A stretch of 64,000 nucleotides of DNA from an uncultured bacterium (lineage in GTDB: Bacteria; Patescibacteriota; Minisyncoccia; UBA6257; 2-01-FULL-56-20): NCBI GenBank assembly GCA_963705915.1, contig OY970126.1, positions 232,306 through 296,305 of the forward strand, read 5' to 3'. Position 1 is the first letter of the stretch; every line of letters begins with the position of its first letter. The translations under genes and the position numbers were made by a program. Positions 43,982 through 57,779 of the stretch are shown here, in pieces. A model generated the notes under the pieces. The model was not told where the DNA came from. It saw nothing but the letters and a program-made list of their open reading frames with translations, and searched no databases.

Positions 43982-45193
43982 TTACCCAAAGGTAAATGTG
44001 AACGCTTGCAGCCCTGGCGAATTGACGATGAGTTCGAGCGTATGATCGCCGCCACCGTCGGCATTGTTTACCAAGTTGTACAAGCGACTCGAACTTATCG
44101 TTACCGTGCCATTGTGGACGTCGCTCCCGGCGTCGGCTGCAGGGATCGGCTGACCGTCCTGGAGGACTTGCAACGTGACCGGCGAGGAAGACGCGCTCGC
44201 GACGATATATACTTTTCCGGCGTCATATTGATAGAGAACTTCGGCCCCAGAACTTACATTCGTTGCATATTGGTCCGCAAAATCCCACGTACCGCCAAGA
44301 TAGAGCGTGTTGAGCTGCGCGCTCGCGGACGATGGCGCGGTGAGCGTCTGAAGGCCGTCTTGCATCTGTGTACCGTTCCCAAGATATTCATTCCTTGCCG
44401 CACCAAAATAGGTTTCCGGACTATTGATCTCGTTCAAATTCGCGTTTTGGACATCAACGGTTCCTGTGCTCACGTTATCCGGAAGCCCGAGTACCTGGTC
44501 ACGCTGTGTAAGTAATTTTTGTATTTCAGCTTCGGTCTCGTCGTAATTTCCTTCGCCTACCTGATCGTGCACGATGTAACCAGCGATGTCGATCAAATAT
44601 TCATGCGGCCAATACAGGTTGCCATAGGCGTCCCACGTTCCATAATTGCTATCAAGCACCACGGGGTATTGAATGCCGTATTGCTGCACCGCCGCTTGGA
44701 CATTGTTAATATTTTTTTCAAATTCAAATTCTGGTGTGTGAATGCCGACGATCTCCAACCCTTCGTTCCCATATTTTGAATACCACGATGTGAGGTAGGG
44801 CAACGTACGGATGCAGTTGATACAGCTATACGTCCAGAAGTCGAGGAGGATTACCTTTTTACCAATGAGGTTCGCGAGGTTGAATCCCGATGTTGCATTG
44901 ATGAATCCGGTTGGGTCGGCGATTTCAATTGCCGGTTGGTCGCCCGCCTTGGCGTCAGCGGCTGCAATTGCCTGGAGCCCTTCCTGCATGGTACTCGACG
45001 AGGAGCCGATCGGCGGCATGCTTGAAATGCCAGGGGAAGAACTCGTGAGGGCCGTACCTGTTGCGTTTATGTTAATCGGCGTTCCGCCGCCGGCAGTGCC
45101 ACTTGGATGCACCTGGATCGCTTCGAGATACCAAATGGCGCCGATGATGAGGACGACGAGAACACCAAGCCAGATTTTTTTATTTTTTGTCAT
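43982..45193 (-). CDS. membrane-anchored extracytoplasmic thioredoxin-fold protein (TlpA/ResA-like CxxC) with extra C-terminal beta-rich domain
   Basis: N-terminal TM; FWTYSCINCIRTLPYL CxxC thioredoxin motif; immediately downstream of ccdA. Confidence 0.7.
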   Translation of the reverse strand: MTKNKKIWLGVLVVLIIGAIWYLEAIQVHPSGTAGGGTPININATGTALTSSSPGISSMPPIGSSSSTMQEGLQAIAAADAKAGDQPAIEIADPTGFINATSGFNLANLIGKKVILLDFWTYSCINCIRTLPYLTSWYSKYGNEGLEIVGIHTPEFEFEKNINNVQAAVQQYGIQYPVVLDSNYGTWDAYGNLYWPHEYLIDIAGYIVHDQVGEGNYDETEAEIQKLLTQRDQVLGLPDNVSTGTVDVQNANLNEINSPETYFGAARNEYLGNGTQMQDGLQTLTAPSSASAQLNTLYLGGTWDFADQYATNVSSGAEVLYQYDAGKVYIVASASSSPVTLQVLQDGQPIPAADAGSDVHNGTVTISSSRLYNLVNNADGGGDHTLELIVNSPGLQAFTFTFG

Positions 45194-45197
45194 GGGA

Positions 45198-45926
45198 TTA
45201 TAGATGATGGGCTAATAAGAAGTTATTAACGAAACCGAAGTTTGCGATGAGCGTGAGGCTTTGCGTGAAAACCAAAATGCCCAAAGCGATGAGGATGACA
45301 CCGAACACCGGATTGATCCATTCGAGCTTAGTCGCGATGCGATTGATCGCTTCTGAGCTCTGCGCGACGAAAAGGCCGACGATGAGAAACGGCACGCCGA
45401 GGCCGATGGCATAGGAAAGCAGGAGGTAAAACGCCGACCCGGGCGCTGATGCGGCGAGCCCGAGAATCCCACCGAGCACCGGGCCTACGCACGGCGTCCA
45501 ACCTGCAGCAAACGCGAATCCAAAAAGGAGCGACGTGAGGTAGCGCGAACGAAAATGCAACTTTACGCCCATCTTATGGTCATACTCCAAAAATGGGATT
45601 TTAAAGAAACCCATAAGGTAGATCCCGAAAAAGATCACAATCAATCCGCCGATCCACGCAAGCCACTGTTGTACGGCATACGCGGCGTGCGCGAGGACGG
45701 TATTTAAAAGAACGCCGAGCAATGCAAAGACTATCGAGAATCCGAGCACAAAGAAGAAGCTGCTCAAAAAAACATTCCACCGCGAAGGCCTTTTGCCCGA
45801 AGCTTGTGCAGACGTCGTATCCCCCGCCAGGTAACCGAGGAACCCAGGAATGATCGGCAAAACACACGGCGAAAGGAAAGAGATGATTCCTCCGATGAAT
45901 GCGCCGATGATCGGAACATCAAGCAT
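45198..45926 (-). CDS. ccdA: cytochrome c-type biogenesis / disulfide-reductant transporter CcdA (DsbD beta-domain family)
   Basis: 6 TM; FLSPCVLPIIPGF and GWTPCVGPVLG conserved Cys-Pro motifs. Confidence 0.85.
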   Translation of the reverse strand: MLDVPIIGAFIGGIISFLSPCVLPIIPGFLGYLAGDTTSAQASGKRPSRWNVFLSSFFFVLGFSIVFALLGVLLNTVLAHAAYAVQQWLAWIGGLIVIFFGIYLMGFFKIPFLEYDHKMGVKLHFRSRYLTSLLFGFAFAAGWTPCVGPVLGGILGLAASAPGSAFYLLLSYAIGLGVPFLIVGLFVAQSSEAINRIATKLEWINPVFGVILIALGILVFTQSLTLIANFGFVNNFLLAHHL

Positions 45927-45938
45927 GAATTATGGTGA

Positions 45939-46301
45939 TTACAATTTATTTTTTCCGTAGATAAGCCCTGCGACCTTTCCGATGATCATGGCAGCGAGCG
46001 CAAATAGGAGCCAAGGATCGAGCGCGTGGGAAAGCTCCTCGATGATGATGGCGACGAGCAAAAGTCCGGAGCCCAAAAGATACGCAACGCGATCGGCAAA
46101 GAAACGGTAGAAGCGTTCATGCTCGTCGCCGCGACCTTCATTCCAAAAGAAAATAGCAAATACGGCGAAGAGTGCAACGATGCCTACGAGCAGGCCCATC
46201 ACGGCGTAGCCGGGCATAAACACGCTCCATGGGTTAAAAATCACAAAAAGCAGAATCAATAAACCGATAGCAACGGCAATTTCACCGCGGAGGTTTTTCA
46301 T
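45939..46301 (-). CDS. small 3-TM membrane protein, partner of upstream XRE regulator
   Basis: 4-nt overlap with XRE stop; hydrophobic profile. Confidence 0.45.
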   Translation of the reverse strand: MKNLRGEIAVAIGLLILLFVIFNPWSVFMPGYAVMGLLVGIVALFAVFAIFFWNEGRGDEHERFYRFFADRVAYLLGSGLLLVAIIIEELSHALDPWLLFALAAMIIGKVAGLIYGKNKL

Positions 46302-46504
46302 GAAGATAACAAAAATATTTTTTCAACCGGCTGCTTAAAAAACCTGGCAATCTTAAGTGCGAGGAGGACCGATGGGACATAATTCCCTCTCTCGATGGCA
46401 ATGATCGTTTGCCGGCTTACCCCAATCTTTTCCGCAAGCTCTTCTTGGGTTATTTCTGCCGCCGTTCTCGCGTCGTGAACATGGTTGCGCACCCGTTCTT
46501 CCAT
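46298..46504 (-). CDS. XRE-family helix-turn-helix transcriptional regulator (68 aa)
   Basis: ITQEELAEKIGVSRQTIIAIERG HTH_3 motif. Confidence 0.75.
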   Translation of the reverse strand: MEERVRNHVHDARTAAEITQEELAEKIGVSRQTIIAIERGNYVPSVLLALKIARFFKQPVEKIFLLSS

Positions 46505-46511
46505 AGATCCA

Positions 46512-46540
46512 ATGATATCGTCTTCGCAACCGATGTCAAG
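46512..46540 (-). promoter_or_regulatory. sigma70 promoter TTGACA-N17-TATCAT with -10 ending 7 nt before the XRE ATG (leaderless transcript predicted)
   Basis: Perfect -35 at 46540-46535 and -10 at 46517-46512 on minus strand. Confidence 0.4.
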
Positions 46541-46541
46541 T

Positions 46542-48197
46542 TTACTTTACATCGCTCCCTGCTGACATTTCGGGCATACTCACATGAAAGGCGCTTCCCT
46601 TGCCTTCGCCGGGTGATTCAGCCCAAAGCTTGCCACCGTGGGCTTCGGTGATTTTGCGGGCAATATAGAGCCCGAGACCGGTGCCCAAGATTTGCTTTTT
46701 CACGCGCTCGTCACGGATAAATTCCTCGAAGAGATGCGGCGCAAGGTCCGACGAGAAACCGACGCCAGAATCGGAAACGGTCACCATCGCAACCGGCGGT
46801 TGGCCTGGGGTTTGTGAGGGCACTTCTTTTAGTTCGACGTGCACGAAGCCGCTCGGGGTGTATTTGATCGCATTGTCGGTAAGATTTTGAATAACCTGCT
46901 TCAGTTTTTCCGCATCGGCGTTCACGGGAATTTCTTTGTCTGGTGCAATAAGCGTGAATTCCAGCTTCTTCGTTTCAGCGAGGCCCTTGAGCAAGTCCAC
47001 GACGTCCGTCACGAGTTTTTTTAAATCGGTGCGGGCCATTTGATATTCCATCTTCCCTTCTTCAACTTTACGCATATCAAGCAACGTGTTTATCAGGCTG
47101 ATGAGGCTATTGGCTGATTCGCCCATCTTACCAACGGTTTCTTTCACTTTATCCGACACGGGGCCGTATGAGCCGCCGACGATGAGCGTGCCGAAGCCTT
47201 TGATCGCCGCAAGTGGTGAACGAATCTGATGCGACGCGAGCGAGAGGAGTTCCGATTTGAAGTGCGAAAGTTCTTCGAGTTGTTTGTTTGTAGCGTCGAG
47301 CTTGGCGTTCAGCCGCTCAAGTTCTTCACGTTGCTCGACTTCCCGCTGCACGCTTTGGATAAGTAAAATACCGAATGAAAGTACGAGGACAAAGACCGCG
47401 CTCTGGAATAAGATTTGCGCGAAGCCTTGGGCAAAAATTATTTCTGCGAACGTGGTGACGGCGAGGGTAAAAGTGAGCGCCTGTGCTGCAAAAACCTTAA
47501 TTTGTAAAAGATGATGCTTTATAACGGCGTACGTCGTAAACGCGATGAGCGGAAAAATGAATACGGCGCCAAGCGGCAAAAAGCGCGGCTCATTAAAGAA
47601 CGCGGGCAAAATGAAATTGAAAATGATATGGAGCGAAAACGTTATGATGGCACCAGCAAGGATAAGTCCGTAGGCAGCCCGATCGCCTTTTTCGGCATGG
47701 ATAAGTTTTTTTGTGAGGACGACGAATGAGCCGATGATGAGACCAAGTACAAAAATTCCAAAAATAACGATGCCAAATCCCGGCTGGGCAACGGAGACTT
47801 GCCCCGCCTTATTTATTTGGTCGACCCGCTCAAGTGCATACGGAGACAACGTGAAAAGCGAAACGAGGACCGTGGCAGGAACAAGGAAGCGCTTATACCA
47901 TTTTGGAAATTCGATTGATTCCGTCGGGAATACATAGAAAAATTGGAAAAGTGAAAAACAGTACCATACCGCGAAAAAGAGAATAAGCCTAAAAAGCCAG
48001 ATGATAACCTCCGGTGACCCCGATTGGTAACTAAGGTAATTGACGATGCTCCACGCAGATGCCGCGAGCGCGAGGAACAGAAAGCTAATATTCGAAATGC
48101 TTTTTCGTTTATTAAAATAGGCGATGAATCCGAGAATTGCATTCGCGGCGAAAGCAACGGCGACAGATAAAAGATCAACATTAACAAAGGAGTTCAT
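46542..48197 (-). CDS. sensor histidine kinase with N-terminal 7TM-type membrane sensor domain
   Basis: At least 7 TM helices; HisKA H-box LSLASHQIRSPLAAIKG; HATPase N/G1/G2 boxes (DNAIKYT, DSGVGF, GTGLGL). Confidence 0.85.
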   Translation of the reverse strand: MNSFVNVDLLSVAVAFAANAILGFIAYFNKRKSISNISFLFLALAASAWSIVNYLSYQSGSPEVIIWLFRLILFFAVWYCFSLFQFFYVFPTESIEFPKWYKRFLVPATVLVSLFTLSPYALERVDQINKAGQVSVAQPGFGIVIFGIFVLGLIIGSFVVLTKKLIHAEKGDRAAYGLILAGAIITFSLHIIFNFILPAFFNEPRFLPLGAVFIFPLIAFTTYAVIKHHLLQIKVFAAQALTFTLAVTTFAEIIFAQGFAQILFQSAVFVLVLSFGILLIQSVQREVEQREELERLNAKLDATNKQLEELSHFKSELLSLASHQIRSPLAAIKGFGTLIVGGSYGPVSDKVKETVGKMGESANSLISLINTLLDMRKVEEGKMEYQMARTDLKKLVTDVVDLLKGLAETKKLEFTLIAPDKEIPVNADAEKLKQVIQNLTDNAIKYTPSGFVHVELKEVPSQTPGQPPVAMVTVSDSGVGFSSDLAPHLFEEFIRDERVKKQILGTGLGLYIARKITEAHGGKLWAESPGEGKGSAFHVSMPEMSAGSDVK

Positions 48198-48203
48198 GTC
48201 GGG

Positions 48204-49271
48204 CTAGGTATACGTGATATCTGGTGGAAGCCTGAGCGATTGCCACGCAAGCGGCTTACCCTTGCCGACGCGCATGAGAAATACCATTGTGTCGCCTCCG
48301 ATACCCGCGATCTCTTTAATAGCCGCATGCGAAGCGTTTATGGTATCGACTTGTTTCGCTGAAAAATCTTGTGCTTCGTTTCTTAAAATTCGCTGCTCAA
48401 AGAAAAGAATCGCGCTGATCGGTTGCACGTCATAGCCAAGCCTATTAGCGGTAAGCCAAAATCGTTGGACCATGCTGCCTCCCTTAAGAAAATCAACCTT
48501 CGTGTTCCCTGGCATGGTGAATATCGCGATACCCGAAACATTCGCATAAAGTTTCACATTGCCTTGAGCGGCGATCTTTGGGAAACCGATGGCACGGAAG
48601 AAATGCAGAAATCCATGGCTTCGGAGTAATTTGAATGTTGCTTCCTGCGGCCCAGCGAGCCCCAGCTCTTTCACGTAAAAACCGCTTTTATGTTCTTCGG
48701 CTTCTTTCGTCGACCAATAAATATGCCCGAATAAAAAGTCGTGAATCTTATCACTCTCAAAGAGAAGCCGATCACCGTAACTAAGCGCTTTGGCAATGTG
48801 CTCCTTTTGGGTTTTATCTTCTATGAGCTTTATCTTCCCGCCGTATGAAAATTCATTCGCCACGCCAAGTAGTGCTTTCCGTTCGTCCTCAGAAAACGTC
48901 GCAGCGCCATTATAATGCGTGCGATTCGATACCCGCTTGGGGATGACATCCATCAATGGATCTGCACTTACCCCATCTTCTTTTTTAAACGTGATATTTG
49001 CGACATGATTTTCATCTGTTTGCGACGGAAAGAATGTCGGCTCCGCCGCGTATTGGAACGCAGAGGCAGCAATCATAATATTCTCAATGAGCGCTCCATG
49101 AGCCACAAAAGAGCCGAGCTGGTCGATATTATAGAGCGACCTGTCCCGATCCGGGAGATTATAGATGGAAAGCATATCGCCGCTCATCACGAACCGCCAC
49201 GGTTGGGAATTTTCTCCTGATGGCGCCCTCACGCCGGCCTCTAAAATTTTTTCAATCGTGTTTCGATCCAT
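48204..49271 (-). CDS. tandem nitroreductase-fold FMN protein (Acg/SagB-like double NTR domain)
   Basis: RAPSGENSQPWRF FMN-binding motif in the first half, second degenerate NTR-like half; 355 aa. Confidence 0.65.
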   Translation of the reverse strand: MDRNTIEKILEAGVRAPSGENSQPWRFVMSGDMLSIYNLPDRDRSLYNIDQLGSFVAHGALIENIMIAASAFQYAAEPTFFPSQTDENHVANITFKKEDGVSADPLMDVIPKRVSNRTHYNGAATFSEDERKALLGVANEFSYGGKIKLIEDKTQKEHIAKALSYGDRLLFESDKIHDFLFGHIYWSTKEAEEHKSGFYVKELGLAGPQEATFKLLRSHGFLHFFRAIGFPKIAAQGNVKLYANVSGIAIFTMPGNTKVDFLKGGSMVQRFWLTANRLGYDVQPISAILFFEQRILRNEAQDFSAKQVDTINASHAAIKEIAGIGGDTMVFLMRVGKGKPLAWQSLRLPPDITYT

Positions 49272-49277
49272 GCGTGG

Positions 49278-50465
49278 CTATAGCCCAAACATTTTTCGGA
49301 ACGAATCCGCAATGTCGGTGCGTTCTTTTACGGCCGCCGGTGAGTTGTAGTCAGGAATAAGTTTTTCATCGAGCGAGACGAGGGCGCGATTCGATTCTAT
49401 CGGTTGGCCGTTCACAATTTTCCGGACACAGTATGCCACCGCAGCACCATTCAGCCACGCGGCGCCTCCAAGTTGTGGCCAAGAAACGATCGTTTTACCC
49501 ATCTCGAGGAGCGACTGCTGCATACGCGGCGTAATATTTTCAGGCCCGATATGTTTCGTGATTGTCTTCCCGATGCCAAATTTATCAAGGGACGTGAGTT
49601 CTTTGTAGGTTACATTGCCAAGGCGCCCTTGGAAAAAGGGCAAATTCGGGTCGAGGTCGTAGCGCTCCACATCGACGACGGCATTATCACCATTGTCTGC
49701 GGCCATCACGAGCGGCAGTTTATACTTCTTGGCATACTCACGAATGAGATACTTCACGCCGAGACTGTCCAATTCATCGATTACAATGTCGAGCTTCGGC
49801 GGTCCGGCAAAAAACTTTTCCAAGTTTTCTTTGGTGAGCCCCTCGGAAAAAAGTTCGATTTCCGCGTAGGGGTTTAGTTCATAAATCTGCCGAGCGGTCA
49901 TCTCGGTCTTCTGAAGCCCAAGGTTTTGCACGCCGGCACGAATGCGATTGATGTTCGTGAGAGCAAGCCGATCAAAGTCAGCAATGCGAAAATGCTTTCC
50001 GCCTCCCTGCTGAACGATAGATAAAACAACATTATTGCCAACGCTCAAACCACCGATGCCGATGACGGCGTTATAAAATTTTTCCTGCTCCTCGGCGTTG
50101 ATAAGATTCTTATTTCTCGCCGTTCGGACTTTTTGAAAATCGGCGTCTTCGAGAACGTGTACGAGCGATGAAAGCCATGGATAAAATATCCAACGGCCTT
50201 GCCGCGTAAACGGCTTTTGTTTTTTGAGGTCCTCAAGATATGCCTCGGTTTTCTCTTTAAATCCTGGCGCGTAGACCATCGAGGGGTTATTGATGGCAAA
50301 CAGTTCACGAAGCTGTTCTTCGTAATCGTCTCCGACGCTTTGTATGATATTCGAAGCGAAAAGTTCGGCCGCTCGAACACCATCTTTTTCTTGATTCAAA
50401 TCCAAGATCTCCGGTTTTGAAACACTCTGCTTAGCGGTTAATTTGTTCTGAAGATCGTCATTCAT
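49278..50465 (-). CDS. E1-like / ThiF-MoeB family adenylyltransferase-fold protein with about 130-aa N-terminal extension, no C-terminal CxxC
   Basis: Rossmann motif VIGIGGLSVGNNV, RIADFDRLALTNINR (conserved Arg/Asp of E1 fold), MAADNGDN. Confidence 0.7.
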   Translation of the reverse strand: MNDDLQNKLTAKQSVSKPEILDLNQEKDGVRAAELFASNIIQSVGDDYEEQLRELFAINNPSMVYAPGFKEKTEAYLEDLKKQKPFTRQGRWIFYPWLSSLVHVLEDADFQKVRTARNKNLINAEEQEKFYNAVIGIGGLSVGNNVVLSIVQQGGGKHFRIADFDRLALTNINRIRAGVQNLGLQKTEMTARQIYELNPYAEIELFSEGLTKENLEKFFAGPPKLDIVIDELDSLGVKYLIREYAKKYKLPLVMAADNGDNAVVDVERYDLDPNLPFFQGRLGNVTYKELTSLDKFGIGKTITKHIGPENITPRMQQSLLEMGKTIVSWPQLGGAAWLNGAAVAYCVRKIVNGQPIESNRALVSLDEKLIPDYNSPAAVKERTDIADSFRKMFGL

Positions 50466-50486
50466 GGTGTTATTGGTATAGATTCA

Positions 50487-51992
50487 TTATAGTGTGCTTG
50501 GCTTCAAAACCCATTTTTGTTTGATGCCAGGCTTAAAATACGTGGGCGTTTCATAACCCCATAGTACGACGACCGGCGTCACTTTATGCGGGATAGCGTT
50601 GTGATTATTCCTGTATTCCGCATTGCGTTTTATGAGTGATTCAACGATATGGTGTTGCACTCTTTTCTCAAGCGCTTTCGACATTTTTATATTGCGCTTG
50701 GTCTCGACATCGATCTCGAGATATTCATCTTGCTTCTTATTAAACTTTGTTATCATAGTGAACTTTCCGGTCACGAATGGCCGAAGCGATTTATGCGCCA
50801 AGCCCTCACGGACATGCTCCGGATAGATGATCGCTCCGTAAAGTTTTGCGGAGAAATCACTCCGCTCATATACATACACAAAGGGCATTTCGGTGAGCGG
50901 TGCGTTCACGTGACGCAATTCTTTTTCTATTGAAATATCATGAAGCGCCATATTCTCTCTGGCTTCAATCATTGAGAATACCCCCCCATTATCGCCCAAA
51001 GCGTATCGCACGAGCGGCAAGGCATTATCCCCGGTAAGCATGATCTCGCCATCGGGAGCCTCGAATGTCGCGAACAGTGGATTATATTGCGCAACGGTCG
51101 GCGTTTTTGCGATATTCGAAAAAAACGTCTTAAAGAGATGCGGATTCGCGAGTGTAAGTCTGCGGACGAGAATGCTCGTCGGTGTTTCGAACGCCATCGC
51201 GCCGAGGTCTGCGGTGCCATAAATATTTAGTGTGTCCCGATATATATTTTTTATACCGGTTTCCTTCGCGAGATAGTCTCGAAAGGGCTCAGTGAATGCT
51301 TCTGCGGCGAAAAGTAATCTCATGTGTAATTTCTTGAGGTCGATCCCCTCCGCTATCGCTTCTTCCAGGACGTCTTTCACGAAAGGCGGATAACCAATCA
51401 GCACCGTTTGTCCGAATCGCGGAGCAAGAGACCGTAGCGCGTGAAAAATTTCTCCTTTATTGATGCCCGGGGTGATTACGGAAACAACGTGTTTCATCCG
51501 GTGACTCGCGATCTCAAACGCTTTGTAGGTCAAAACGCCTCCGATCCAAACGCCCATCCCAAACCCCACGATCACAAGCGTTGATTTTTCGCTGCCCCGC
51601 GAACTATTTTTCAAAAACATTTCTGCGAGCACCGAATATTGTTCATCCAACTGTTCGGTTCGCGGAAAATAAAAGGGTGCGCCCGTCGATCCGGATGTAG
51701 ACGTCCACACGATCCCGTTTCCTAATGTACCTCCCCAGACTAGCTTGTCCGGAGGATATTGTCGCAAATAGTTTTTCCTATCTACCGGCGGGACAAGCTG
51801 AAAATCTTTAAAAGTCTTGATCTTTCCTGACGCGATTTTGTGTTTTTTTAAGAAATCTTTATATGCCGGTACGCCATGGGCTGCCCGGTGAAAAAGATCG
51901 AGCGCCCGATGCTCGCGAGTTTTATCCCAAAATGCGGCTTTCTCACGCCTTACCTTATCCAAGACGCCCTCAATGGAACGATCATTATTCAT
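50487..51992 (-). CDS. PaaK-like adenylate-forming enzyme (phenylacetate-CoA ligase / F390-synthetase family)
   Basis: N-terminal VPAYKDFLKKH...DFQLVPPVDRKNYLRQYPP pattern and P-loop TSTSGSTGAPFYFP analogous to PaaK SSGTTGKP. Confidence 0.7.
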   Translation of the reverse strand: MNNDRSIEGVLDKVRREKAAFWDKTREHRALDLFHRAAHGVPAYKDFLKKHKIASGKIKTFKDFQLVPPVDRKNYLRQYPPDKLVWGGTLGNGIVWTSTSGSTGAPFYFPRTEQLDEQYSVLAEMFLKNSSRGSEKSTLVIVGFGMGVWIGGVLTYKAFEIASHRMKHVVSVITPGINKGEIFHALRSLAPRFGQTVLIGYPPFVKDVLEEAIAEGIDLKKLHMRLLFAAEAFTEPFRDYLAKETGIKNIYRDTLNIYGTADLGAMAFETPTSILVRRLTLANPHLFKTFFSNIAKTPTVAQYNPLFATFEAPDGEIMLTGDNALPLVRYALGDNGGVFSMIEARENMALHDISIEKELRHVNAPLTEMPFVYVYERSDFSAKLYGAIIYPEHVREGLAHKSLRPFVTGKFTMITKFNKKQDEYLEIDVETKRNIKMSKALEKRVQHHIVESLIKRNAEYRNNHNAIPHKVTPVVVLWGYETPTYFKPGIKQKWVLKPSTL

Positions 51993-52049
51993 CGCATGTA
52001 ATGGGGATTTACTAACATTATAGCACGAACGAAGCGCAAAACTTGATTT

Positions 52050-53108
52050 TTATTTCTTATTCTTTCTTCCCTTCAAAAATATATTCTCGGCAAGCTGGTC
52101 TGCTACTTCGTTCATCGATTTCTTCTTTTCTTTCGAAAGCGCAATGATCGTGCTCACGGTCTCGCGGATCTGTAAAACTTTTTCGCGCACGCGCTCTTTG
52201 GAATATCCTTTTTTATCCAATTCAGAGACGACGTCGATCAACCCACCGGCATTCGCGACATAATCGGGCACATAGAGAATGCCGAGTCGTTGAAGGACGC
52301 GGCCGTACGAACTTGATTTAAGCTGATTATTCGATCCACCGCAAATGATGCTACAGCGAAATTGGTCGATCGTGCGCTCATCAATTTCCGTACCGAGCGC
52401 ATTCGGGCTATAGACGTCCACTTTTTGTTTGTGGATCTCTTTCGGGCTCACAAATTTTATGCCTTTTATCTTTCGCCGTGCCGCACTCATAGCCTCTTCG
52501 CGAATATCACTTGCGATGATTTTCCCACCATGACGATCGACGAGAATGGCGACCTCCATGCCAACTTTACCGAGGCCTCGTATGGCGACGCTTCGATTCC
52601 GAAGTTCGTCGCTCCCAAAAACTTCTTTGAGCGCCGCCTGGAGTGCCTGAAAAACACCGAGTGCGGCCCACGGGCTCGGATCCCCTCCTAGGCGTTTTCG
52701 CCCAATAATATAAGGTGAATATTTGGCGAGCTGGTTCGCGTCGTTTTGATCGACACCGACGTCTTCGCCCGTGAAAAACCCTCCGTGAAATAAATTGATT
52801 CGGCGCGCATAAGCTGCTAAAAACTTTTTATTTTTTAAATTCTGATGGTTGCCGATGATGACCGCTTTTCCCCCGCCATATGGAAGCCCAGCGAGCGCAC
52901 ACTTATACGTCATGGCACGCGAAAGCCGCAATGCGTCTTTGAGCGCTTCCTGCTCGGAGCCGTAGTGCCAATATCGCGTACCGCCGGTAGCCGGACCAAG
53001 ATTGGTGTTATGGATACAGATATACCCTCGCAAGCCGACGCTCTCGTCTGCAATATATGAGACAAGCTCGTGATTATCAAACTCCGGAAGGTCGACGAAA
53101 TTTTCCAT
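52050..53108 (-). CDS. Glu/Leu/Phe/Val-family amino-acid dehydrogenase (Leu/Phe-dehydrogenase-like)
   Basis: LGPATGGTRYWHY, catalytic Lys box LPYGGGKAVIIG, Rossmann GLGKVGMEVA. Confidence 0.85.
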   Translation of the reverse strand: MENFVDLPEFDNHELVSYIADESVGLRGYICIHNTNLGPATGGTRYWHYGSEQEALKDALRLSRAMTYKCALAGLPYGGGKAVIIGNHQNLKNKKFLAAYARRINLFHGGFFTGEDVGVDQNDANQLAKYSPYIIGRKRLGGDPSPWAALGVFQALQAALKEVFGSDELRNRSVAIRGLGKVGMEVAILVDRHGGKIIASDIREEAMSAARRKIKGIKFVSPKEIHKQKVDVYSPNALGTEIDERTIDQFRCSIICGGSNNQLKSSSYGRVLQRLGILYVPDYVANAGGLIDVVSELDKKGYSKERVREKVLQIRETVSTIIALSKEKKKSMNEVADQLAENIFLKGRKNKK

Positions 53109-53110
53109 GA

Positions 53111-53497
53111 CTACATGAGGCTTTTGACACGTTCGGCGAGACGACCAATATCGTCGGTTTTACTAAGAATCGTGACGGGGCCAACGTGCTGCATCATCAT
53201 AGTTCGATCGTCGCGAAATTCAAGCCATGGATCTCGGAGGCTCGTAAAAAGCGCGAAATGGATATCACGGGTCTTTGCGTCCTTGCGAAGTGCGAGCGCC
53301 AAGTCCCAACCATTGGGCCCAGGCGGCATGTAGACATCACTCAAGACCATATCGGGACTTACGGAAGCTATAGCATCGAGCGCTTCGGGAACGCTATGGG
53401 CCTTTACGACATCAAAGTCGCCAGCAAGCTGGGTTGAAGCGATTTCGAGAAATGCATCTTCATCGTCCACGATCACTATGAGCGGCTTCGATCTCAT
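53111..53497 (-). CDS. stand-alone response-regulator receiver domain (CheY-like)
   Basis: IVDDE, phospho-acceptor Asp in MVLSDVYMP, conserved Thr/Lys. Confidence 0.8.
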   Translation of the reverse strand: MRSKPLIVIVDDEDAFLEIASTQLAGDFDVVKAHSVPEALDAIASVSPDMVLSDVYMPPGPNGWDLALALRKDAKTRDIHFALFTSLRDPWLEFRDDRTMMMQHVGPVTILSKTDDIGRLAERVKSLM

Positions 53498-53540
53498 GCA
53501 TTCATTATAACAATAGGGCCTTATTTGCGTATATCTTTAT

Positions 53541-53693
53541 ATGCTTGTAACCATTGCTGTGATTTTATTAATCTTGTGGGTCCTGGGCCTCGTGACATCC
53601 TATACGATCGGTGGTTTCATCTATATCCTCCTGGTCGTCGCGATCATCCTATTTCTTATCAGGATCATCCAAGGGAAAAACCCGGTCCAATAA
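53541..53693 (+). CDS. lmo0937-family small membrane protein (50 aa, two TM helices)
   Basis: Own translation: MLVTIAVILLILWVLGLVTSYTIGGFIYILLVVAIILFLIRIIQGKNPVQ; below the 60-aa ORF-track cutoff. Confidence 0.6.
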   Translation: MLVTIAVILLILWVLGLVTSYTIGGFIYILLVVAIILFLIRIIQGKNPVQ

Positions 53694-53722
53694 AACGTGG
53701 GGTACAAAAACAGCGCTTTTTA

Positions 53723-55555
53723 CTAAGCGCTGTTTTTATTTGCTCGCTTGCGATCGTTGTCGGTGAGATATTTTTTCCGGATACGGACGTTCTGCGGCGT
53801 CACTTCTACCAGTTCATCATCGCCAATATAATCGAGGGCATCCTCAAGTGAAAGTGTGAGTGGTGTTTCGAGCTGATCGGCCAAACCTTCGTTTTTCGCG
53901 CGGAAGTTCGTGAGCTGTTTCTCGCGCGCAACGTGCACCATGACGTCGCCGTCTTTTGCGTTTTGCCCGACGACCATCCCTTCGTAAACCTCAATGCCGG
54001 GTCCGATGAAAAGCGTACCGCGTCCTTGGGCTGTCACCAAGCCGTAGTTGTTGGATTTTCCCGACTGCGTGGCAACGATGGAGCCGAACGGAAGCGCCGT
54101 GATGTCTCCCTTGTATGGTTCATAGCCCAAGAAAATGCTGTTCATGATGCCGGTGCCCTTCGTTGCCGTGAGAAATTTATTGCGGATACCAATAAGGCCG
54201 CGTGTCGGGACGTCGAAGTCCATAAACGCGATTTTCTTGTCGTCGACTTTCATATTCTTCATCAAGCCGAGGCGCTTGCCGAGCATTTCAATTACCGTGC
54301 CGGAATAGGCTTCGGGCACTTCAATCGAAACGAGTTCAATCGGTTCAAGTTTTTTACCGTTCTCTTCCTTGAAAATAACCTGCGGCTTTGAAACCTCCAC
54401 TTCGTATCCTTCGCGACGCATTTTTTCGATGAGAATTGAAAGGTGTAATTCGCCGCGTCCTGCAACAATCCATTTATCGGTTGTGTCGGTTGGCGTAACC
54501 TTCAACGCAACGTCAGTTTCCAGTTCATGATCCAATCGCTCCTTTATGTTGCGCGACGTAGTAAATTTTCCTTCGCGCCCACGAAATGGCGAGGTATTCA
54601 CCGCAAATGTCATCTTGATCGTTGGCTCGTCAATTTCAATGGTTGGCAAAGGTTTTGGATCGTCAGGGTCAGTAATAGTTTCGCCGATGGTAATATCTGG
54701 GATACCCGCGATAGCAACGATGTCGCCGGCATACGCCTCTTCAACGTCCACGCGGCCAAGACCATCGAACACCATCACCGATGTGATCTGCTCTTTTTTG
54801 ATTGCTCCATCGCGTGTGATATGCGCCACGGTCGCCGCTTTCTTTAATGTGCCAGCGTACAAACGGCCAACGCCAAGTTTGCCTTTGTAATTGTCCGGTG
54901 CCAAATTAACCGTCAAAAACTGGAGCGTCGTTATCTCGCTCCCGTCGGCATTCTTTGGAATTTGAGGGGCGGGAATATGCTTGATAATCTCGTCGAAAAT
55001 CGGCACGATGTCTTTCATCTCGCTCAAGTTTTTATTCAGCCCGGCTTTTCCTTCGCGCGCGGCGGCATAAATTACCGGGAACTCGATTTGCGCTTCCGTT
55101 GCGTCGAGCTCAAAAAACAAATCATACGTGGCGTTGAGTGCCCATTCAGGCCGTGCGTCAGGCTTATCAATTTTATTGATCACGACGACAATTTTGTGTC
55201 CCGCCTGGATCGCCTTCCGCAAAACAAATTTTGTCTGCGGCATCGGCCCTTCCTTTGCGTCGACGAGCAGGAGAACTCCGTCAACCATGCGCATAATACG
55301 TTCAACTTCGCCGCCAAAGTCAGCGTGGCCCGGCGTGTCCACAATATTTATCTTCGTGTCGTGATAGATGACGGCGGCATTTTTTGAAAAAATAGTTATG
55401 CCGCGCTCCCTCTCAAGCTCGTTTGAATCCATGATAAGTTCGCTCTGCGCCCCGGTTTTTAACTTAAAGCTCGCCGACTGCTTGAGGAGCGCGTCGACGA
55501 GGGTGGTTTTGCCGTGGTCTACGTGGGCAATGATAGCGATGTTTCGAATGTCCAT
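53723..55555 (-). CDS. typA: translational GTPase TypA/BipA; start set at MDIRNIAIIAHVDHGKTT
   Basis: G1-G5 motifs, EF-G-like domains, 610 aa. Confidence 0.9.
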   Translation of the reverse strand: MDIRNIAIIAHVDHGKTTLVDALLKQSASFKLKTGAQSELIMDSNELERERGITIFSKNAAVIYHDTKINIVDTPGHADFGGEVERIMRMVDGVLLLVDAKEGPMPQTKFVLRKAIQAGHKIVVVINKIDKPDARPEWALNATYDLFFELDATEAQIEFPVIYAAAREGKAGLNKNLSEMKDIVPIFDEIIKHIPAPQIPKNADGSEITTLQFLTVNLAPDNYKGKLGVGRLYAGTLKKAATVAHITRDGAIKKEQITSVMVFDGLGRVDVEEAYAGDIVAIAGIPDITIGETITDPDDPKPLPTIEIDEPTIKMTFAVNTSPFRGREGKFTTSRNIKERLDHELETDVALKVTPTDTTDKWIVAGRGELHLSILIEKMRREGYEVEVSKPQVIFKEENGKKLEPIELVSIEVPEAYSGTVIEMLGKRLGLMKNMKVDDKKIAFMDFDVPTRGLIGIRNKFLTATKGTGIMNSIFLGYEPYKGDITALPFGSIVATQSGKSNNYGLVTAQGRGTLFIGPGIEVYEGMVVGQNAKDGDVMVHVAREKQLTNFRAKNEGLADQLETPLTLSLEDALDYIGDDELVEVTPQNVRIRKKYLTDNDRKRANKNSA

Positions 55556-55673: not shown

Positions 55674-56150
55674 ATGGAAGAACTTCGCTTAGAAATTGGC
55701 ATGCAGGCTCCGGATTTCACCCTTCCCGACCAGGATGGCAAGCTTCACACCCTTTCGGACTATCGGGGCAAATCGGTGTTGCTCTACTTTTATCCTAAAG
55801 ACGACACCCCGGGGTGCACCAAAGAAGCCTGTATGCTCCGTGACGCATTCCCCCATTTTGAAAAATTGAACGCTGTGGTTCTCGGCGTGAGCGTGGACTC
55901 CGTGGCAAGCCATAAAAAGTTTATTGAAAAATATAATTTGCCGTTCACGCTATTATCCGACGAACATAAAAAAGTCGTGGATCTCTACCATGTTTGGGCG
56001 AAAAAACGTCTTTACGGACGCGAATATGATGGCATCTTACGAACTTCTTTCCTCATCGATCAGGAAGGCGATATCGAAAAGATCTACCACGACGTAAAAC
56101 CTGAGAAGCACGCCGAAGAAGTTATACACGACCTGAGCGCATCAGATTAG
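55674..56150 (+). CDS. bcp: thiol peroxidase Bcp (peroxiredoxin, AhpC/TSA family)
   Basis: [14 protein letters not shown] peroxidatic/resolving Cys motif. Confidence 0.9.
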
Positions 56151-56792: not shown

Positions 56793-57779
56793 TTGCAGTT
56801 AAAAAACTTACCATTTATGAAAAAAATACTTTATTTCGCAGTTGGTATGCTTGCAATCGTGGGCTTCGGAATGAATATAGGTCTTGCGCACGCACAAAGT
56901 GTTCCGGGCGCAGGAACCCCTTCCACAGCAACATTGCAGCAGGAACTCCAGGTTGCAAAAGCAACACTCGTCAATCTTGAGATGCAAGCGGGCATGATCC
57001 CTGCGGGTGATAACAACGTGCCGGCAACAGGATCTGCTTCGGCTGGATTATCCGTGAGCGATCGCACAACGATTTCGAACGCCCTTGGCTCATTGGTCTC
57101 GGCGCTCTCGTCGCTTAATGCCACGCTTGCAGCGAATCCAACGGAGGCAACAACGCATCAAGCTGCCATCGCTTCCGTCTTGAGCGGTATGCAAAGCACA
57201 CTCGTCGCCATGAACAATACGCTCACGAACGGCAACCAGATTTCTGGCGGCGGGGCAGCCTCTGCTCCGATTGCCGTGAACGCACCCTCGACCGGCAACT
57301 CGGGCAGCGCCGCTGCTTCGACCGGCTCGAATTCCGGTTCGAACGCACCAGCTCCGATCGCACAAACACAGCCAAGCACTCCGGCAATGCCTTCCACCGG
57401 GTCGCTCGCTCCGACAGCCGCTCCGACGGCGGGATCGAATAACACCCCACAGACGGCGCAAGCCTCGAATGCCTGGACGTTCGTGGTTGCCCACTGGCCG
57501 ACGATCACGATTATCATTCTCGTAGCCCTCATCCTCCTCATTTTGTTCTGGCCAAGTAGTGATGAGAAGAAAAATGATCATCATGGCGCTCCAGCCTCGC
57601 GGCCTCAAACGCCAAATCGTCCGATTGTGACGACGACCGTACAGAGCTCACGCACCGAAACGCAAACCGCCACACCGGTTTCGACCGTTGTAGCGGCTCC
57701 AGCGCAAAAAGTTGAGGCGCAGCAGAGCAAAGTGACCGTAATCCGACCTCAACAAAACCCGCCGAAACAGATTGCGTAG
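56793..57779 (+). CDS. hypothetical bitopic protein: signal peptide, Ala/Ser/Thr-rich ectodomain, C-terminal TM and basic cytoplasmic tail
   Basis: Signal MKKILYFAVGMLAIVGFGMNIGLAHA; C-terminal TM WPTITIIILVALILLILFW. Confidence 0.5.
   Translation: MQLKNLPFMKKILYFAVGMLAIVGFGMNIGLAHAQSVPGAGTPSTATLQQELQVAKATLVNLEMQAGMIPAGDNNVPATGSASAGLSVSDRTTISNALGSLVSALSSLNATLAANPTEATTHQAAIASVLSGMQSTLVAMNNTLTNGNQISGGGAASAPIAVNAPSTGNSGSAAASTGSNSGSNAPAPIAQTQPSTPAMPSTGSLAPTAAPTAGSNNTPQTAQASNAWTFVVAHWPTITIIILVALILLILFWPSSDEKKNDHHGAPASRPQTPNRPIVTTTVQSSRTETQTATPVSTVVAAPAQKVEAQQSKVTVIRPQQNPPKQIA

Follow-up and report, generated by a model that had tools for sequence, protein, structure and literature searches.

A gene module conserved in Patescibacteria is probably a version of oxazolone biosynthesis joined to a two-component sensor

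What could four enzyme genes, packed between two signalling genes, make in a member of the Patescibacteria? The question is raised by a locus in the 64,000-nucleotide stretch of DNA analysed here (the window), where six genes lie on the minus strand with spacers of 2–57 nt. A stand-alone response-regulator receiver domain (53111..53497; 128 aa; Pfam Response_reg, 36.3 bits against a cut-off of 30.2) is encoded 2 nt upstream of a leucine dehydrogenase (LeuDH)-like, NAD(P)-dependent amino-acid dehydrogenase (52050..53108; 352 aa; ELFV_dehydrog_N and ELFV_dehydrog). This is followed by a divergent PaaK-fold adenylate-forming ligase (50487..51992; 501 aa; identified by fold, a weak NCBIfam match and a PDB sequence match), an E1/ThiF-like protein (49278..50465; 395 aa; ThiF PF00899, 5e-20), and a tandem nitroreductase (NTR) flavoprotein (48204..49271; 355 aa; PF00881, 4e-12, with an Acg-type tandem fold). 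The spacers between these four enzyme genes are 57, 21, and 6 nt. A 7TM sensor histidine kinase (46542..48197; 551 aa; HisKA_7TM, 40.7 bits against a cut-off of 28.6, with HisKA and HATPase_c) is encoded 6 nt downstream of the NTR gene, and a promoter-like site immediately past its stop codon suggests that the operon ends there. An earlier note, made from the DNA letters alone, had described this layout; its coordinates, its 6–57 nt spacers, and the flanking receiver and 7TM kinase were confirmed, and its four family assignments hold by Pfam, NCBIfam, and fold comparison.

The clearest indication of function came from the E1-like and NTR proteins taken together. Joined in silico, they reached 524.7 bits with the curated Rv1355c model NF005901 (cut-off 476), with coverage of the full length of both; singly, they matched separate halves of this model, the NTR protein on positions 374–713 (E 8.5e-55). 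These matches identify the pair, by its sequence, as a split TrzS-type enzyme, which places it within the characterised family of oxazolone synthetases (OxzB, TyzB/TyzC, and TrzS, which is Rv1355c). Naturally fused relatives with 52% identity also exceed the model cut-off, and the catalytic motifs do not vary; the flavin-site motif of the NTR protein (A16-P-S..N21.Q-P-W25, E63/N64, N116/R117, and R334) is invariant with respect to fused relatives. Oxazolone synthetases were described between 2021 and 2025 and have an established biochemistry: N-acyl amino acids are cyclised in an ATP-dependent reaction and desaturated in a flavin-dependent one (PMC12856293; PMC10404671; bioRxiv 10.1101/2020.06.11.147165). 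The E1/ThiF-like protein would accordingly be the ATP-dependent cyclase half of the synthetase, after which, in a fourth step, the nitroreductase-fold flavoprotein would desaturate the C-alpha/C-beta bond to give a conjugated oxazolone; as a counterpoint, the known flavin-dependent oxidases of the oxazolone family use O2.

The earlier note had taken the E1-like protein and the nitroreductase for an unrecognised combination resembling the C and B components of TOMM systems; the pair is instead a known oxazolone synthetase in split form, and the suggestion of an amino-acid-derived small molecule is in line with this family membership. The N-terminal extension is indeed present, as a folded domain of ~120 residues before the ThiF core, and the CxxC motif is indeed missing, the protein having a single Cys; neither is unusual, as both are typical of oxazolone synthetases. 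In TrzS, which together with TrzA makes N-acyl tryptazolones in Mycobacterium tuberculosis and its relatives (PMC12856293), the same features are found: a ThiF-like cyclase with an Acg-like flavin-dependent oxidase, an N-terminal domain, an ATP-site Asp (D233 in the window), and no zinc or Cys motifs. The separate, adjacent cyclase and oxidase genes of the window resemble TyzB and TyzC, which with TyzA (Rv2336/2338c/2337c for TyzA/TyzB/TyzC) make N-acyl tyrazolones (PMC10404671), although TyzB (318 aa) belongs to another subcluster than TrzS. The same two-step logic of cyclisation and desaturation is shared by OxzA/OxzB of Pseudoalteromonas rubra (bioRxiv 10.1101/2020.06.11.147165).

Could the two proteins instead be unrelated neighbours, a MoeB/ThiF-type cofactor enzyme and an Acg-type stress nitroreductase that happen to be co-regulated by the kinase with a catabolic dehydrogenase and an acyl-CoA ligase? 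Separate matches to ThiF/MoeB models (50–68 bits) and to the Acg family (140 bits, cut-off 199) were obtained, the NTR protein also matching PRK14851 (207 bits) and Acg in the PDB (2YMV), and the flanking genes of the locus, both in the window and in close relatives, include redox genes. None of the ThiF, MoeB, and Acg scores comes near its cut-off, however, while the joint Rv1355c model was passed; E1 and NTR form a single polypeptide in relatives, Patescibacteria among them; and conservation of the redox flanks was not found past close relatives. The fusions, together with the synteny described below, largely refute this reading, which is barely credible. A characterised family was thus found, as the earlier note had allowed for, but with one joint role in place of separate MoeB and Acg roles.

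Modification of a peptide or protein C terminus was also considered, whether RiPP/TOMM-like or ubiquitin-like, with the E1-like protein adenylating and the flavoprotein oxidising. Among the structural neighbours of the E1-like protein are MccB and PaaA, both with peptide substrates; its N-terminal domain might conceivably serve to clamp a substrate; and in chemical terms the C-terminal residue of a peptide counts as an N-acyl amino acid. Against this, the earlier note was right that YcaO and a precursor peptide are both missing: neither YcaO nor a free-standing small ORF was found inside the module, and each Cys/Ser/Thr-rich short ORF detected in a scan was fully contained in an enzyme gene, none being conserved as a free-standing one. 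No ThiS/MoaD/ubiquitin-like or E2 gene was found at the module, the E1-like protein is without a catalytic Cys or zinc motif, PADLOC E1–E2 matches reached just 17–29 bits, and the sequence places E1 and NTR in the small-molecule TrzS family, so that a peptide or protein substrate is very unlikely. With the Cys and the partners missing, the novel E1-driven acyl-transfer system that had been suggested for the locus is not supported either.

The module recurs in 80 species-representative genomes in differing flanking contexts, from which it follows that the arrangement is not due to chance; the operon is conserved among tiny-genome Patescibacteria, and the synteny test that the earlier note had proposed was passed. 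Four to five module genes are kept together in unrelated flanks and despite permutations of gene order. The association is closest between the E1 and PaaK-like genes, which adjoin each other on the same strand in all 40 complete loci (median gap 1 nt); about 5 of these 40 have ligase and E1 without the NTR gene, the kinase gene, or both.

In the proposed first step, an upstream enzyme would deaminate an amino acid to a carboxylic acid; in the window, the LeuDH-like enzyme is proposed from its sequence to make a 2-oxo acid for the ligase. Its best PDB matches are leucine (272 bits), Trp (241 bits), and Phe (150 bits) dehydrogenases. When the window sequence was compared with 37 module-linked orthologues (n = 38), an altered side-chain pocket was seen: Gly114 stands in every sequence in place of the Ala of LeuDH, Leu290 replaces the Val of LeuDH in 37 of 38, and position 41 is V/T/A/I, against Leu in LeuDH. 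Across loci, the slot is occupied by four non-homologous enzymes, namely the LeuDH-like dehydrogenase (37 of 80 loci), a bona fide IlvE (366 bits versus 279), a HisC-like aminotransferase, and an FlxA-like tyrosine ammonia-lyase. That these unrelated deaminating enzymes interchange suggests that the slot supplies the acid activated by the ligase, which supports the earlier idea that the dehydrogenase feeds a 2-oxo or aryl acid to it. The direction of the step, deamination, is drawn from the same four fillers, as the ammonia-lyase is effectively irreversible; the dehydrogenase and aminotransferases are reversible, so a slot of that type could instead make the amino acid. In 15 of the 40 complete loci, no such slot enzyme lies nearby. 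A characterised lyase-then-ligase pair is FlxA/FlxY of flexirubin initiation, in which a tyrosine ammonia-lyase is followed by a ligase activating the resulting acid (PMC3992019). FlxA is the best match of the lyase in fused-type Patescibacteria modules (583–603 bits, with all scores under curated cut-offs); the differences are that FlxY supplies a polyketide-type pathway via CoA and that the window has a dehydrogenase in place of a lyase.

For the PaaK-like protein, which has more than 2,500 homologues, no Pfam match was found, and the NCBIfam PaaK model gave 43 bits (cut-off 700). Its AF2 model (pLDDT 90) has PaaK1 (2Y27) as the top Foldseek match (E 6e-21, TM 0.69/0.80), and across 51 orthologues the P-loop T99-S-G-S-T (with G104 nearly invariant), Y258/G259, R329, D334, and K491 are invariant. 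In the second step, as proposed from sequence and model, the ligase would use ATP to convert the deaminated acid to an acyl-adenylate and then acylate the amino nitrogen of an amino acid, yielding an N-acyl amino acid, either directly, as in ClxA and NatL2, or via CoA. TrzS relies for acylation on TrzA, an acyl-CoA N-acyltransferase, and the Tyz and Oxz systems on AHL-synthase-like or GNAT-like N-acyltransferases with fatty acyl-CoA; neither the Tyz nor the Oxz system includes a ligase, dehydrogenase, or kinase. Neither an N-acyltransferase nor any other recurrent non-housekeeping family was found beside the module in the 80 loci, and no acyltransferase-like family was found in 4 further fused-type loci. 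Given this absence and the constant pairing of E1 and ligase, the deeply divergent PaaK-fold ligase most likely takes the place of the usual N-acyltransferase, which would be new in oxazolone pathways.

A classical route, in which the PaaK-like protein is an ordinary acyl-CoA ligase, the N-acyltransferase is encoded elsewhere, and E1 and NTR act as TyzBC/TrzS do, may also apply. The best-characterised relatives of the ligase, and its nearest solved folds (PaaK1, BT_0428, and HCL), are CoA ligases, the FlxY and PaaK HMMs match weakly, and acyl-CoA and an acyltransferase are used by all characterised oxazolone pathways. We regard this route as doubtful, because in published oxazolone systems the acyltransferase is typically adjacent and because ClxA and NatL2, amide/ester ligases of benzoxazole synthesis, show that a PaaK fold can ligate directly (PMC9400959, PMC12519233). 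ClxA is itself among the fold matches (E 7e-15), and in both enzymes an amine or a hydroxyl captures the acyl-adenylate with no CoA involved, after which a heterocycle is formed. They differ from the window ligase in identity (~16%), in their aminohydroxybenzoate substrates, and in ring closure by an amidohydrolase and not an E1-like enzyme.

The same enzymes might make another product: a dipeptide or other amide, a different ring such as a diketopiperazine or a hydantoin (as TcdA), or a metabolite or envelope component, with the kinase regulating only. For the E1 core, the best PDB sequence match is TcdA, which carries out a cyclisation of the hydantoin/oxazolone type on tRNA, and enzymes of the AlbA type, with a nitroreductase fold, introduce double bonds into cyclodipeptides (work cited by the OxzB study, bioRxiv 10.1101/2020.06.11.147165). 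The NTR protein is the least conserved member of the module (3% of positions at least 95% conserved, against 19% in the ligase), and oxazolone function is not established even in model systems. Such a product is nonetheless unlikely, as the TrzS-family assignment spans the full length of E1 and NTR and as the kinase linkage, seen in two phyla, exceeds usual operon regulation.

A kinase gene lies near the module in 32–33 of the 40 complete loci, and kinase and NTR genes tend to occur together (both in 30, neither in 5, one only in 5; Fisher p 0.0015). A receiver gene was found near the module in 25 of the 80 loci, at times in 2–3 copies; the receiver of the window has no output domain. Kinase homologues with 37% identity come after the fused/TAL-type modules L088, L089, and L093, and a fused homologue in Algoriphagus (Bacteroidota) also lies beside a 7TMR-DISM kinase and receivers. 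The authors of the TrzS study likewise point to neighbouring c-di-GMP signalling genes and suggest a signalling role (PMC12856293). That the module travels with a membrane sensor kinase hints that its product is a signal. In the Vibrio pairs LuxM/LuxN and CqsA/CqsS, an autoinducer synthase gene adjoins the gene for a polytopic-membrane histidine-kinase receptor. The likeness is that genes for a hydrophobic molecule derived from amino acids or acyl groups stand beside a multi-pass membrane histidine kinase; there is no synthase or sensor-domain homology, and ligand sensing by the window kinase is inferred. In the fifth step, the 7TM kinase and receiver are proposed, from their domains and linkage, either to sense a hydrophobic, hydrolytically labile product or to control its synthesis, and their adjacency may reflect regulation only.

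Compared with TrzS of the Actinomycetota, the module of the Patescibacteria has two separate genes for the synthetase and adds a ligase, a deaminating enzyme, a 7TM kinase, and a receiver. We judge, with a probability of roughly 0.6, that it is a Patescibacteria-specific version of oxazolone (azlactone) biosynthesis joined to a two-component sensor. On this best reading, it would give these bacteria an ATP-driven route from an amino acid to an oxazolone, possibly without CoA, the product of which is perhaps sensed by the kinase.

The six genes of the module all lie on the minus strand: a receiver (53111-53497), an ELFV-type dehydrogenase (52050-53108; Pfam ELFV_dehydrog_N and ELFV_dehydrog), a PaaK-like protein (50487-51992), an E1/ThiF-like protein (49278-50465), a tandem nitroreductase-fold protein (NTR; 48204-49271) and a 7TM histidine kinase (46542-48197; HisKA_7TM). 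From receiver to kinase, the spacers are 2, 57, 21, 6 and 6 nt. The ORF positions and strand in the earlier note, read from the sequence alone, were exact; its observation of the module stands, and its interpretation was supported in part. Family assignments were backed by Pfam and NCBIfam for every protein except the PaaK-like one, for which weak PaaK HMM matches, a PDB sequence match and an AlphaFold model were used.

For assignment of the E1-NTR pair, both proteins were compared with NCBIfam. The E1-like protein matched positions 5-349 of the 722-position model NF005901 ("Rv1355c family") at 332.2 bits (6e-99), and NTR matched positions 374-713 of the same model at 186.3 bits (8.5e-55). Joined in silico, the two scored 524.7 bits over positions 5-713 of 722, where the curated cut-off is 476 bits. 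Four naturally fused E1+NTR proteins (P0242, P0263, P0278 and P0288) also exceeded this cut-off (485-792 bits), and one fused protein shares 52% identity with the E1-like protein of the window. An exhaustive HMMER search returned 991 clusters of relatives at E <= 1e-30, in which split forms (~360-400 aa) are mixed with fused ones (~700-790 aa). Rv1355c is TrzS, a characterised oxazolone synthetase that cyclises an N-acyl amino acid with ATP and desaturates it oxidatively to an oxazolone; a cyclised intermediate has been seen with it (PMC12856293). The same chemistry is performed by TyzB and TyzC of M. tuberculosis, encoded by separate, adjacent genes (PMC10404671), and by OxzB of Pseudoalteromonas, a fused form (bioRxiv 10.1101/2020.06.11.147165). 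Judged by family membership, the pair is a known enzyme divided over two genes, and we put the probability that it acts as an oxazolone-type cyclase/desaturase at roughly 0.85; the core chemistry of the module would belong to a known family, the activity itself being predicted.

A well-folded domain of ~120 residues precedes the ThiF core of the E1-like protein; a search of the PDB with this domain gave no match. HMMER alignments to relatives mostly begin at query residues 10-45, and the domain is therefore a feature of the family; the N-terminal extension that had first seemed unusual is ordinary among Rv1355c relatives. The ThiF-type adenylation (nucleotide) site is intact: its Gly-rich loop G139xSxG143 and residues D163, D165, N171, R174, K186 and D233, the last at the place of the Mg/ATP aspartate, are invariant when the protein is aligned with E. 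coli ThiF and with fused relatives. D233 aligns with ThiF D127, through which it is probably equivalent to TrzS D217. The protein has a single cysteine (C346) and no CxxC, and the CxxC regions of ThiF have no counterpart in it or in the whole fused/split family by alignment. The zinc CxxC reported missing at first reading is indeed absent, but this is usual in the Rv1355c family rather than peculiar to the window. The best structural neighbour of the E1-like protein was AclA (PDB 9EGB), on which a literature search yielded nothing usable.

NTR, whose gene lies 6 nt downstream of that for the E1-like protein, matches Acg (PDB 2YMV), and its flavin-site motifs are invariant in an alignment with fused relatives. 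Mutagenesis has shown residues R540 and Q651 of the flavin-dependent oxidase part of TrzS_Msmeg to matter; candidate counterparts are invariant R117 (TNR motif), R334 and the Q/H preceding invariant P284. Against the Acg family model NF047509, NTR scored 140.2 bits (cut-off 199), with higher scores on fusion-type models (207 bits for PRK14851, 186 bits for Rv1355c). By that cut-off it falls outside the Acg family of (DosR-regulon) FMN-binding oxidoreductases. Separate MoeB and Acg roles for the two proteins were rejected, since the halves occur naturally as fusions, score jointly on the HMM and keep their synteny. The E1-like protein fell far below all cut-offs of the ThiF/MoeB sulfur-carrier models; with no CxxC pairs, no catalytic cysteine and no ThiS/MoaD partner gene in the module, a sulfur-carrier adenylyltransferase was also rejected.

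The earlier note had likened the E1-NTR pair to the C and B components of TOMM systems and suggested a scan for short Cys/Ser/Thr-rich substrates. No YcaO was found among the six module proteins, and none recurs in the 80 related loci. Among the 73 ORFs of 20-70 aa scanned in 48100-53750, every Cys/Ser/Thr-rich one lies wholly inside the enzyme genes, and the sole free ORFs, in the gap between the receiver and BipA genes, are not Cys/Ser/Thr-rich. With no YcaO and no free-standing Cys/Ser/Thr-rich small ORF as precursor peptide, and with membership of NF005901 instead, a TOMM/RiPP system (microcin B17-type azole synthetase) was discarded. The same applied to an anti-phage E1-E2 system (Cap2/Bil-type), for which PADLOC returned only generic matches of 17-29 bits to the E1 core and none for the other three enzymes.

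In all characterised oxazolone systems the N-acyl amino acid is made by an N-acyltransferase (OxzA, TyzA or TrzA) that depends on acyl-CoA and is encoded alongside, whereas the module has a PaaK-fold ligase in the adjacent position. Pfam gave no match at all for this ligase, AMP-binding included; two PaaK NCBIfam models scored 43.4 bits (cut-off 700) and 28.8 bits (cut-off 646.3), and no paa genes lie nearby. Its AlphaFold model (pLDDT 90) found PaaK1 (2Y27) as the best PDB match with Foldseek (E 6e-21, TM 0.69/0.80). Across 51 orthologues, T99-S-G-S-T, Y258/G259, E376/R377 and K491 are invariant and G104 and D379 nearly so; we take these to be the ANL A-motifs (P-loop, A5, A8 and the A10 lysine). 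The model and these residues point to a PaaK fold with intact adenylation motifs. More than 2,500 homologues were found, the best 120 being at least 53% identical, and all of these that are named to lineage are Patescibacteria. The ligase is the most conserved member of the module, with 19% of positions at least 95% conserved as against 9% in the E1-like protein and 3% in NTR.

The ligase probably supplies the acyl group from a deaminated acid. Two PaaK-fold enzymes, ClxA and NatL2, use no CoA: their acyl-adenylate is joined directly to an amine or a hydroxyl. No OxzA/TyzA/TrzA-type acyltransferase is present in the module, nor does such a family recur in the 80 loci or in the fused Patescibacteria loci, and direct amide formation by the ligase is for this reason the most economical reading; we give even odds that the ligase acts without CoA. 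A CoA route completed by an unlinked acyltransferase is a serious competitor, since the nearest solved folds of the ligase are CoA ligases, in a list that includes ClxA too, yet it has to accommodate the lack of an accompanying acyltransferase in any locus examined.

The slot upstream of the ligase is occupied by four unrelated enzymes across loci. A LeuDH-like dehydrogenase takes it in 37 of 80 loci; the other three are a class IV aminotransferase scoring above the curated IlvE cut-offs (366 bits vs 279), a HisC-like class I/II aminotransferase and, in Patescibacteria loci with fused E1-NTR, an aromatic amino-acid ammonia-lyase. The best model for the lyase was the flexirubin tyrosine ammonia-lyase (TAL) FlxA (583-603 bits), followed by histidine ammonia-lyase (462-465) and aminomutases (398-425), all below the cut-offs. 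The PaaK-like ligase of fused-type loci is a paralogue of the window ligase (33-34% identity over ~490 residues, E 1e-93 to 3e-80); these loci also carry a kinase homologue 37% identical to that of the window and, in two of three, a methyltransferase. One genome, GCA_964626715.1, appears to hold two versions of the module, a split one of dehydrogenase type (locus L051) and a fused one of tyrosine-ammonia-lyase type with an extra methyltransferase (L088).

Each slot enzyme is predicted to turn an amino acid into an acid without the amino group, a step that is practically irreversible for the lyase. A pair in which a ligase (FlxY) acts after a lyase (FlxA) has been characterised (PMC3992019), and the PaaK-like proteins match FlxY weakly. 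Because all four enzymes would deaminate an amino acid, and in view of this precedent and these matches, we infer that the slot provides the acid activated by the ligase, as had been proposed at first reading for the dehydrogenase. The best PDB match of the window dehydrogenase was LeuDH (6ACF, 272 bits), and the catalytic lysine of the GGxK motif, K81, is invariant. At the positions of LeuDH Leu40, Ala113 and Val291, which we take to form the side-chain pocket, the 38 sequences compared have a smaller residue than Leu (T41; V/T/A/I in orthologues), invariant G114 and L290 (37/38). With these pocket positions altered, the substrate is probably not simply leucine; a bulkier hydrophobic amino acid is the probable one.

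A scan found a ligase relative encoded in 274 species-representative genomes. The best 80 of these are all uncultured MAGs, and those named to lineage are Patescibacteria (Wolfe-, Lipton-, Harrison-, Adler-, Nomura-, Wildermuth-, Magasanik- and Roizmanbacteria and Microgenomates). Presence was counted in the 40 loci whose flanking DNA was long enough. The E1 gene lies beside the ligase gene on the same strand in 40/40 (median gap 1 nt). For NTR, tblastn gave 30 loci and ORF clustering 33; the kinase is present in 32-33, the receiver in 11-14 and either a dehydrogenase or an aminotransferase in 25-26. Gene order is permuted in some loci, the gene set staying together, and the flanks are wholly different between lineages (e.g. 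ribosomal and DnaK/DnaJ genes vs tRNA synthetases). When all ORFs of the 80 loci were clustered, no further recurrent family emerged besides housekeeping genes (DnaK/DnaJ/GrpE, RF2, AspRS, BipA, aldolase and S9), and no small peptide; occasional neighbours were an ABC transporter, a TehB-like methyltransferase and TrmB.

In five loci (L011, L013, L014, L026 and L066) the ligase and E1-like protein are kept and NTR was not found near the module. The dehydrogenase is present in the first three; the kinase was not found in four, and L066 has both kinase and receiver. The genes after E1 in these loci are unrelated to one another. Their pathway may be a reduced one with the saturated oxazolone as its end product; alternatively, an oxidase encoded elsewhere may serve it. 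Searches of the Patescibacteria literature gave nothing relevant on the module, and the oxazolone papers mention no ligase, kinase or Patescibacteria. Within the literature that could be searched, we found no description of the replacement by a ligase, of the modular slot, of a linked kinase or of a Patescibacteria host.

In most loci, amid unrelated flanks, the module is followed by a gene for a HisKA_7TM kinase, and so are fused, TAL-type modules. Kinase and NTR were both present in 30 loci, both absent in 5 and found singly in 5 (Fisher p 0.0015, not phylogeny-corrected). In an Algoriphagus sp. locus (L091; GCA_013373065.1, 3121-11142), a fused Rv1355c-family gene lies beside genes for a 7TMR-DISM kinase, a hybrid kinase/receiver, a receiver and an alanine-dehydrogenase-family protein; an unannotated 228-aa protein, possibly an acyltransferase, is also encoded there. 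No kinase lies beside the Rv1355c-family fusions of Myxococcota and Chloroflexota. Neighbours of the non-Patescibacteria fusions L090, L091 and L092 that lack Pfam and NCBIfam matches are not PaaK-like; they are at most candidates for the acyltransferases expected there.

A synthase is encoded beside a polytopic membrane kinase in LuxM/LuxN and CqsA/CqsS. The module resembles these by gene adjacency alone, and its synthase-beside-kinase arrangement is suggestive only. Simple co-regulation may also account for the kinase linkage. The receiver has no output domain. TrmB-family regulators adjoin the module in at least 8 loci (L043, L064, L067, L071, L077, L084, L087, L089 and, in two copies, the P0250 locus) and could be the DNA-binding element absent from the receiver. 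The authors of the oxazolone papers suspect a signalling or stress role, and note that the compounds are labile and resemble acyl-homoserine lactones. Oxazolones are lost on treatment with acid or methanol (PMC12856293). That the kinase senses the product of the module is tentative and rather unlikely. A wider reading, slightly more doubtful still, treats the module as a signal synthase and receptor of Patescibacteria in one self-contained unit. An acid derived from an amino acid would be combined with an amino acid into a labile oxazolone, perhaps with no need of CoA, and the 7TM kinase would be the receptor. It would be similarly speculative that signal "dialects" specific to a lineage arise by exchange of the acid supplier (LeuDH-like, IlvE, HisC-like or TAL, in some cases accompanied by a methyltransferase), or that some genomes run two such systems.

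Other features of the window were recorded around the module. An extremely hydrophobic 50-aa ORF (MLVTIAVILLILWVLGLVTSYTIGGFIYILLVVAIILFLIRIIQGKNPVQ) lies on the opposite strand at 53541-53693 (+), in the 225-nt gap between receiver and BipA; it looks like a small membrane protein and, found by tblastn in 2 of 80 related loci, seems not to be part of the module. A co-directional string after the kinase (43982-46504, minus) encodes an XRE-type HTH protein (46298-46504), a 120-aa membrane protein, a DsbD/CcdA-like protein (45198-45926) and a thioredoxin-like protein (43982-45193); beyond BipA lies a peroxiredoxin-like gene (55674-56150, plus). This redox neighbourhood is common only to the close relatives L006, L009, L023 and L025 and not to other lineages. 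A strong, near-consensus promoter-like site (TTGACA-16-TATCAT, 46539-46512) directly follows the kinase stop codon; the promoter/terminator scan was otherwise uninformative. Terminator-like hairpins in 45800-54200 numbered 23, about twice the 10.3 +/- 2.8 of shuffled sequence, and nearly all fall in coding regions by coordinates. The product of a 328-aa ORF at 56793-57779 (+) has one hydrophobic segment at its N terminus and another near residue 240, along with long low-complexity stretches rich in Ala, Ser, Thr, Pro and Gln, and resembles proteins that are secreted or at the cell surface.

Oxazolone natural products have been known only since 2021, and the papers describing them name their physiological role as a major unresolved question. 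The locus offers three leads: a different chemical entry, a receptor hypothesis and an unexpected host. As to the first, a ligase family apparently in place of the acyl-CoA-dependent acyltransferase predicts a possible CoA-free, amide-forming biocatalyst, and the four interchangeable acid suppliers predict new oxazolones with 2-oxoacyl or coumaroyl side chains, perhaps with non-aromatic amino acids. The linkage of a 7TM kinase and receiver to the pathway in most loci, together with the 7TM kinase beside the Bacteroidota fusion, makes the receptor hypothesis testable. As to the host, conservation of the pathway extends to at least 274 species-level genomes, and those among the best 80 that are named to lineage are all Patescibacteria. 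These bacteria are generally described as poor in biosynthetic capacity, and a multi-gene small-molecule pathway retained in them is therefore probably important for their lifestyle. Were the signalling reading true, oxazolones would gain their missing physiological role; we know of no earlier prediction of an endogenous system of chemical signalling in the ultra-small, largely uncultured Patescibacteria.
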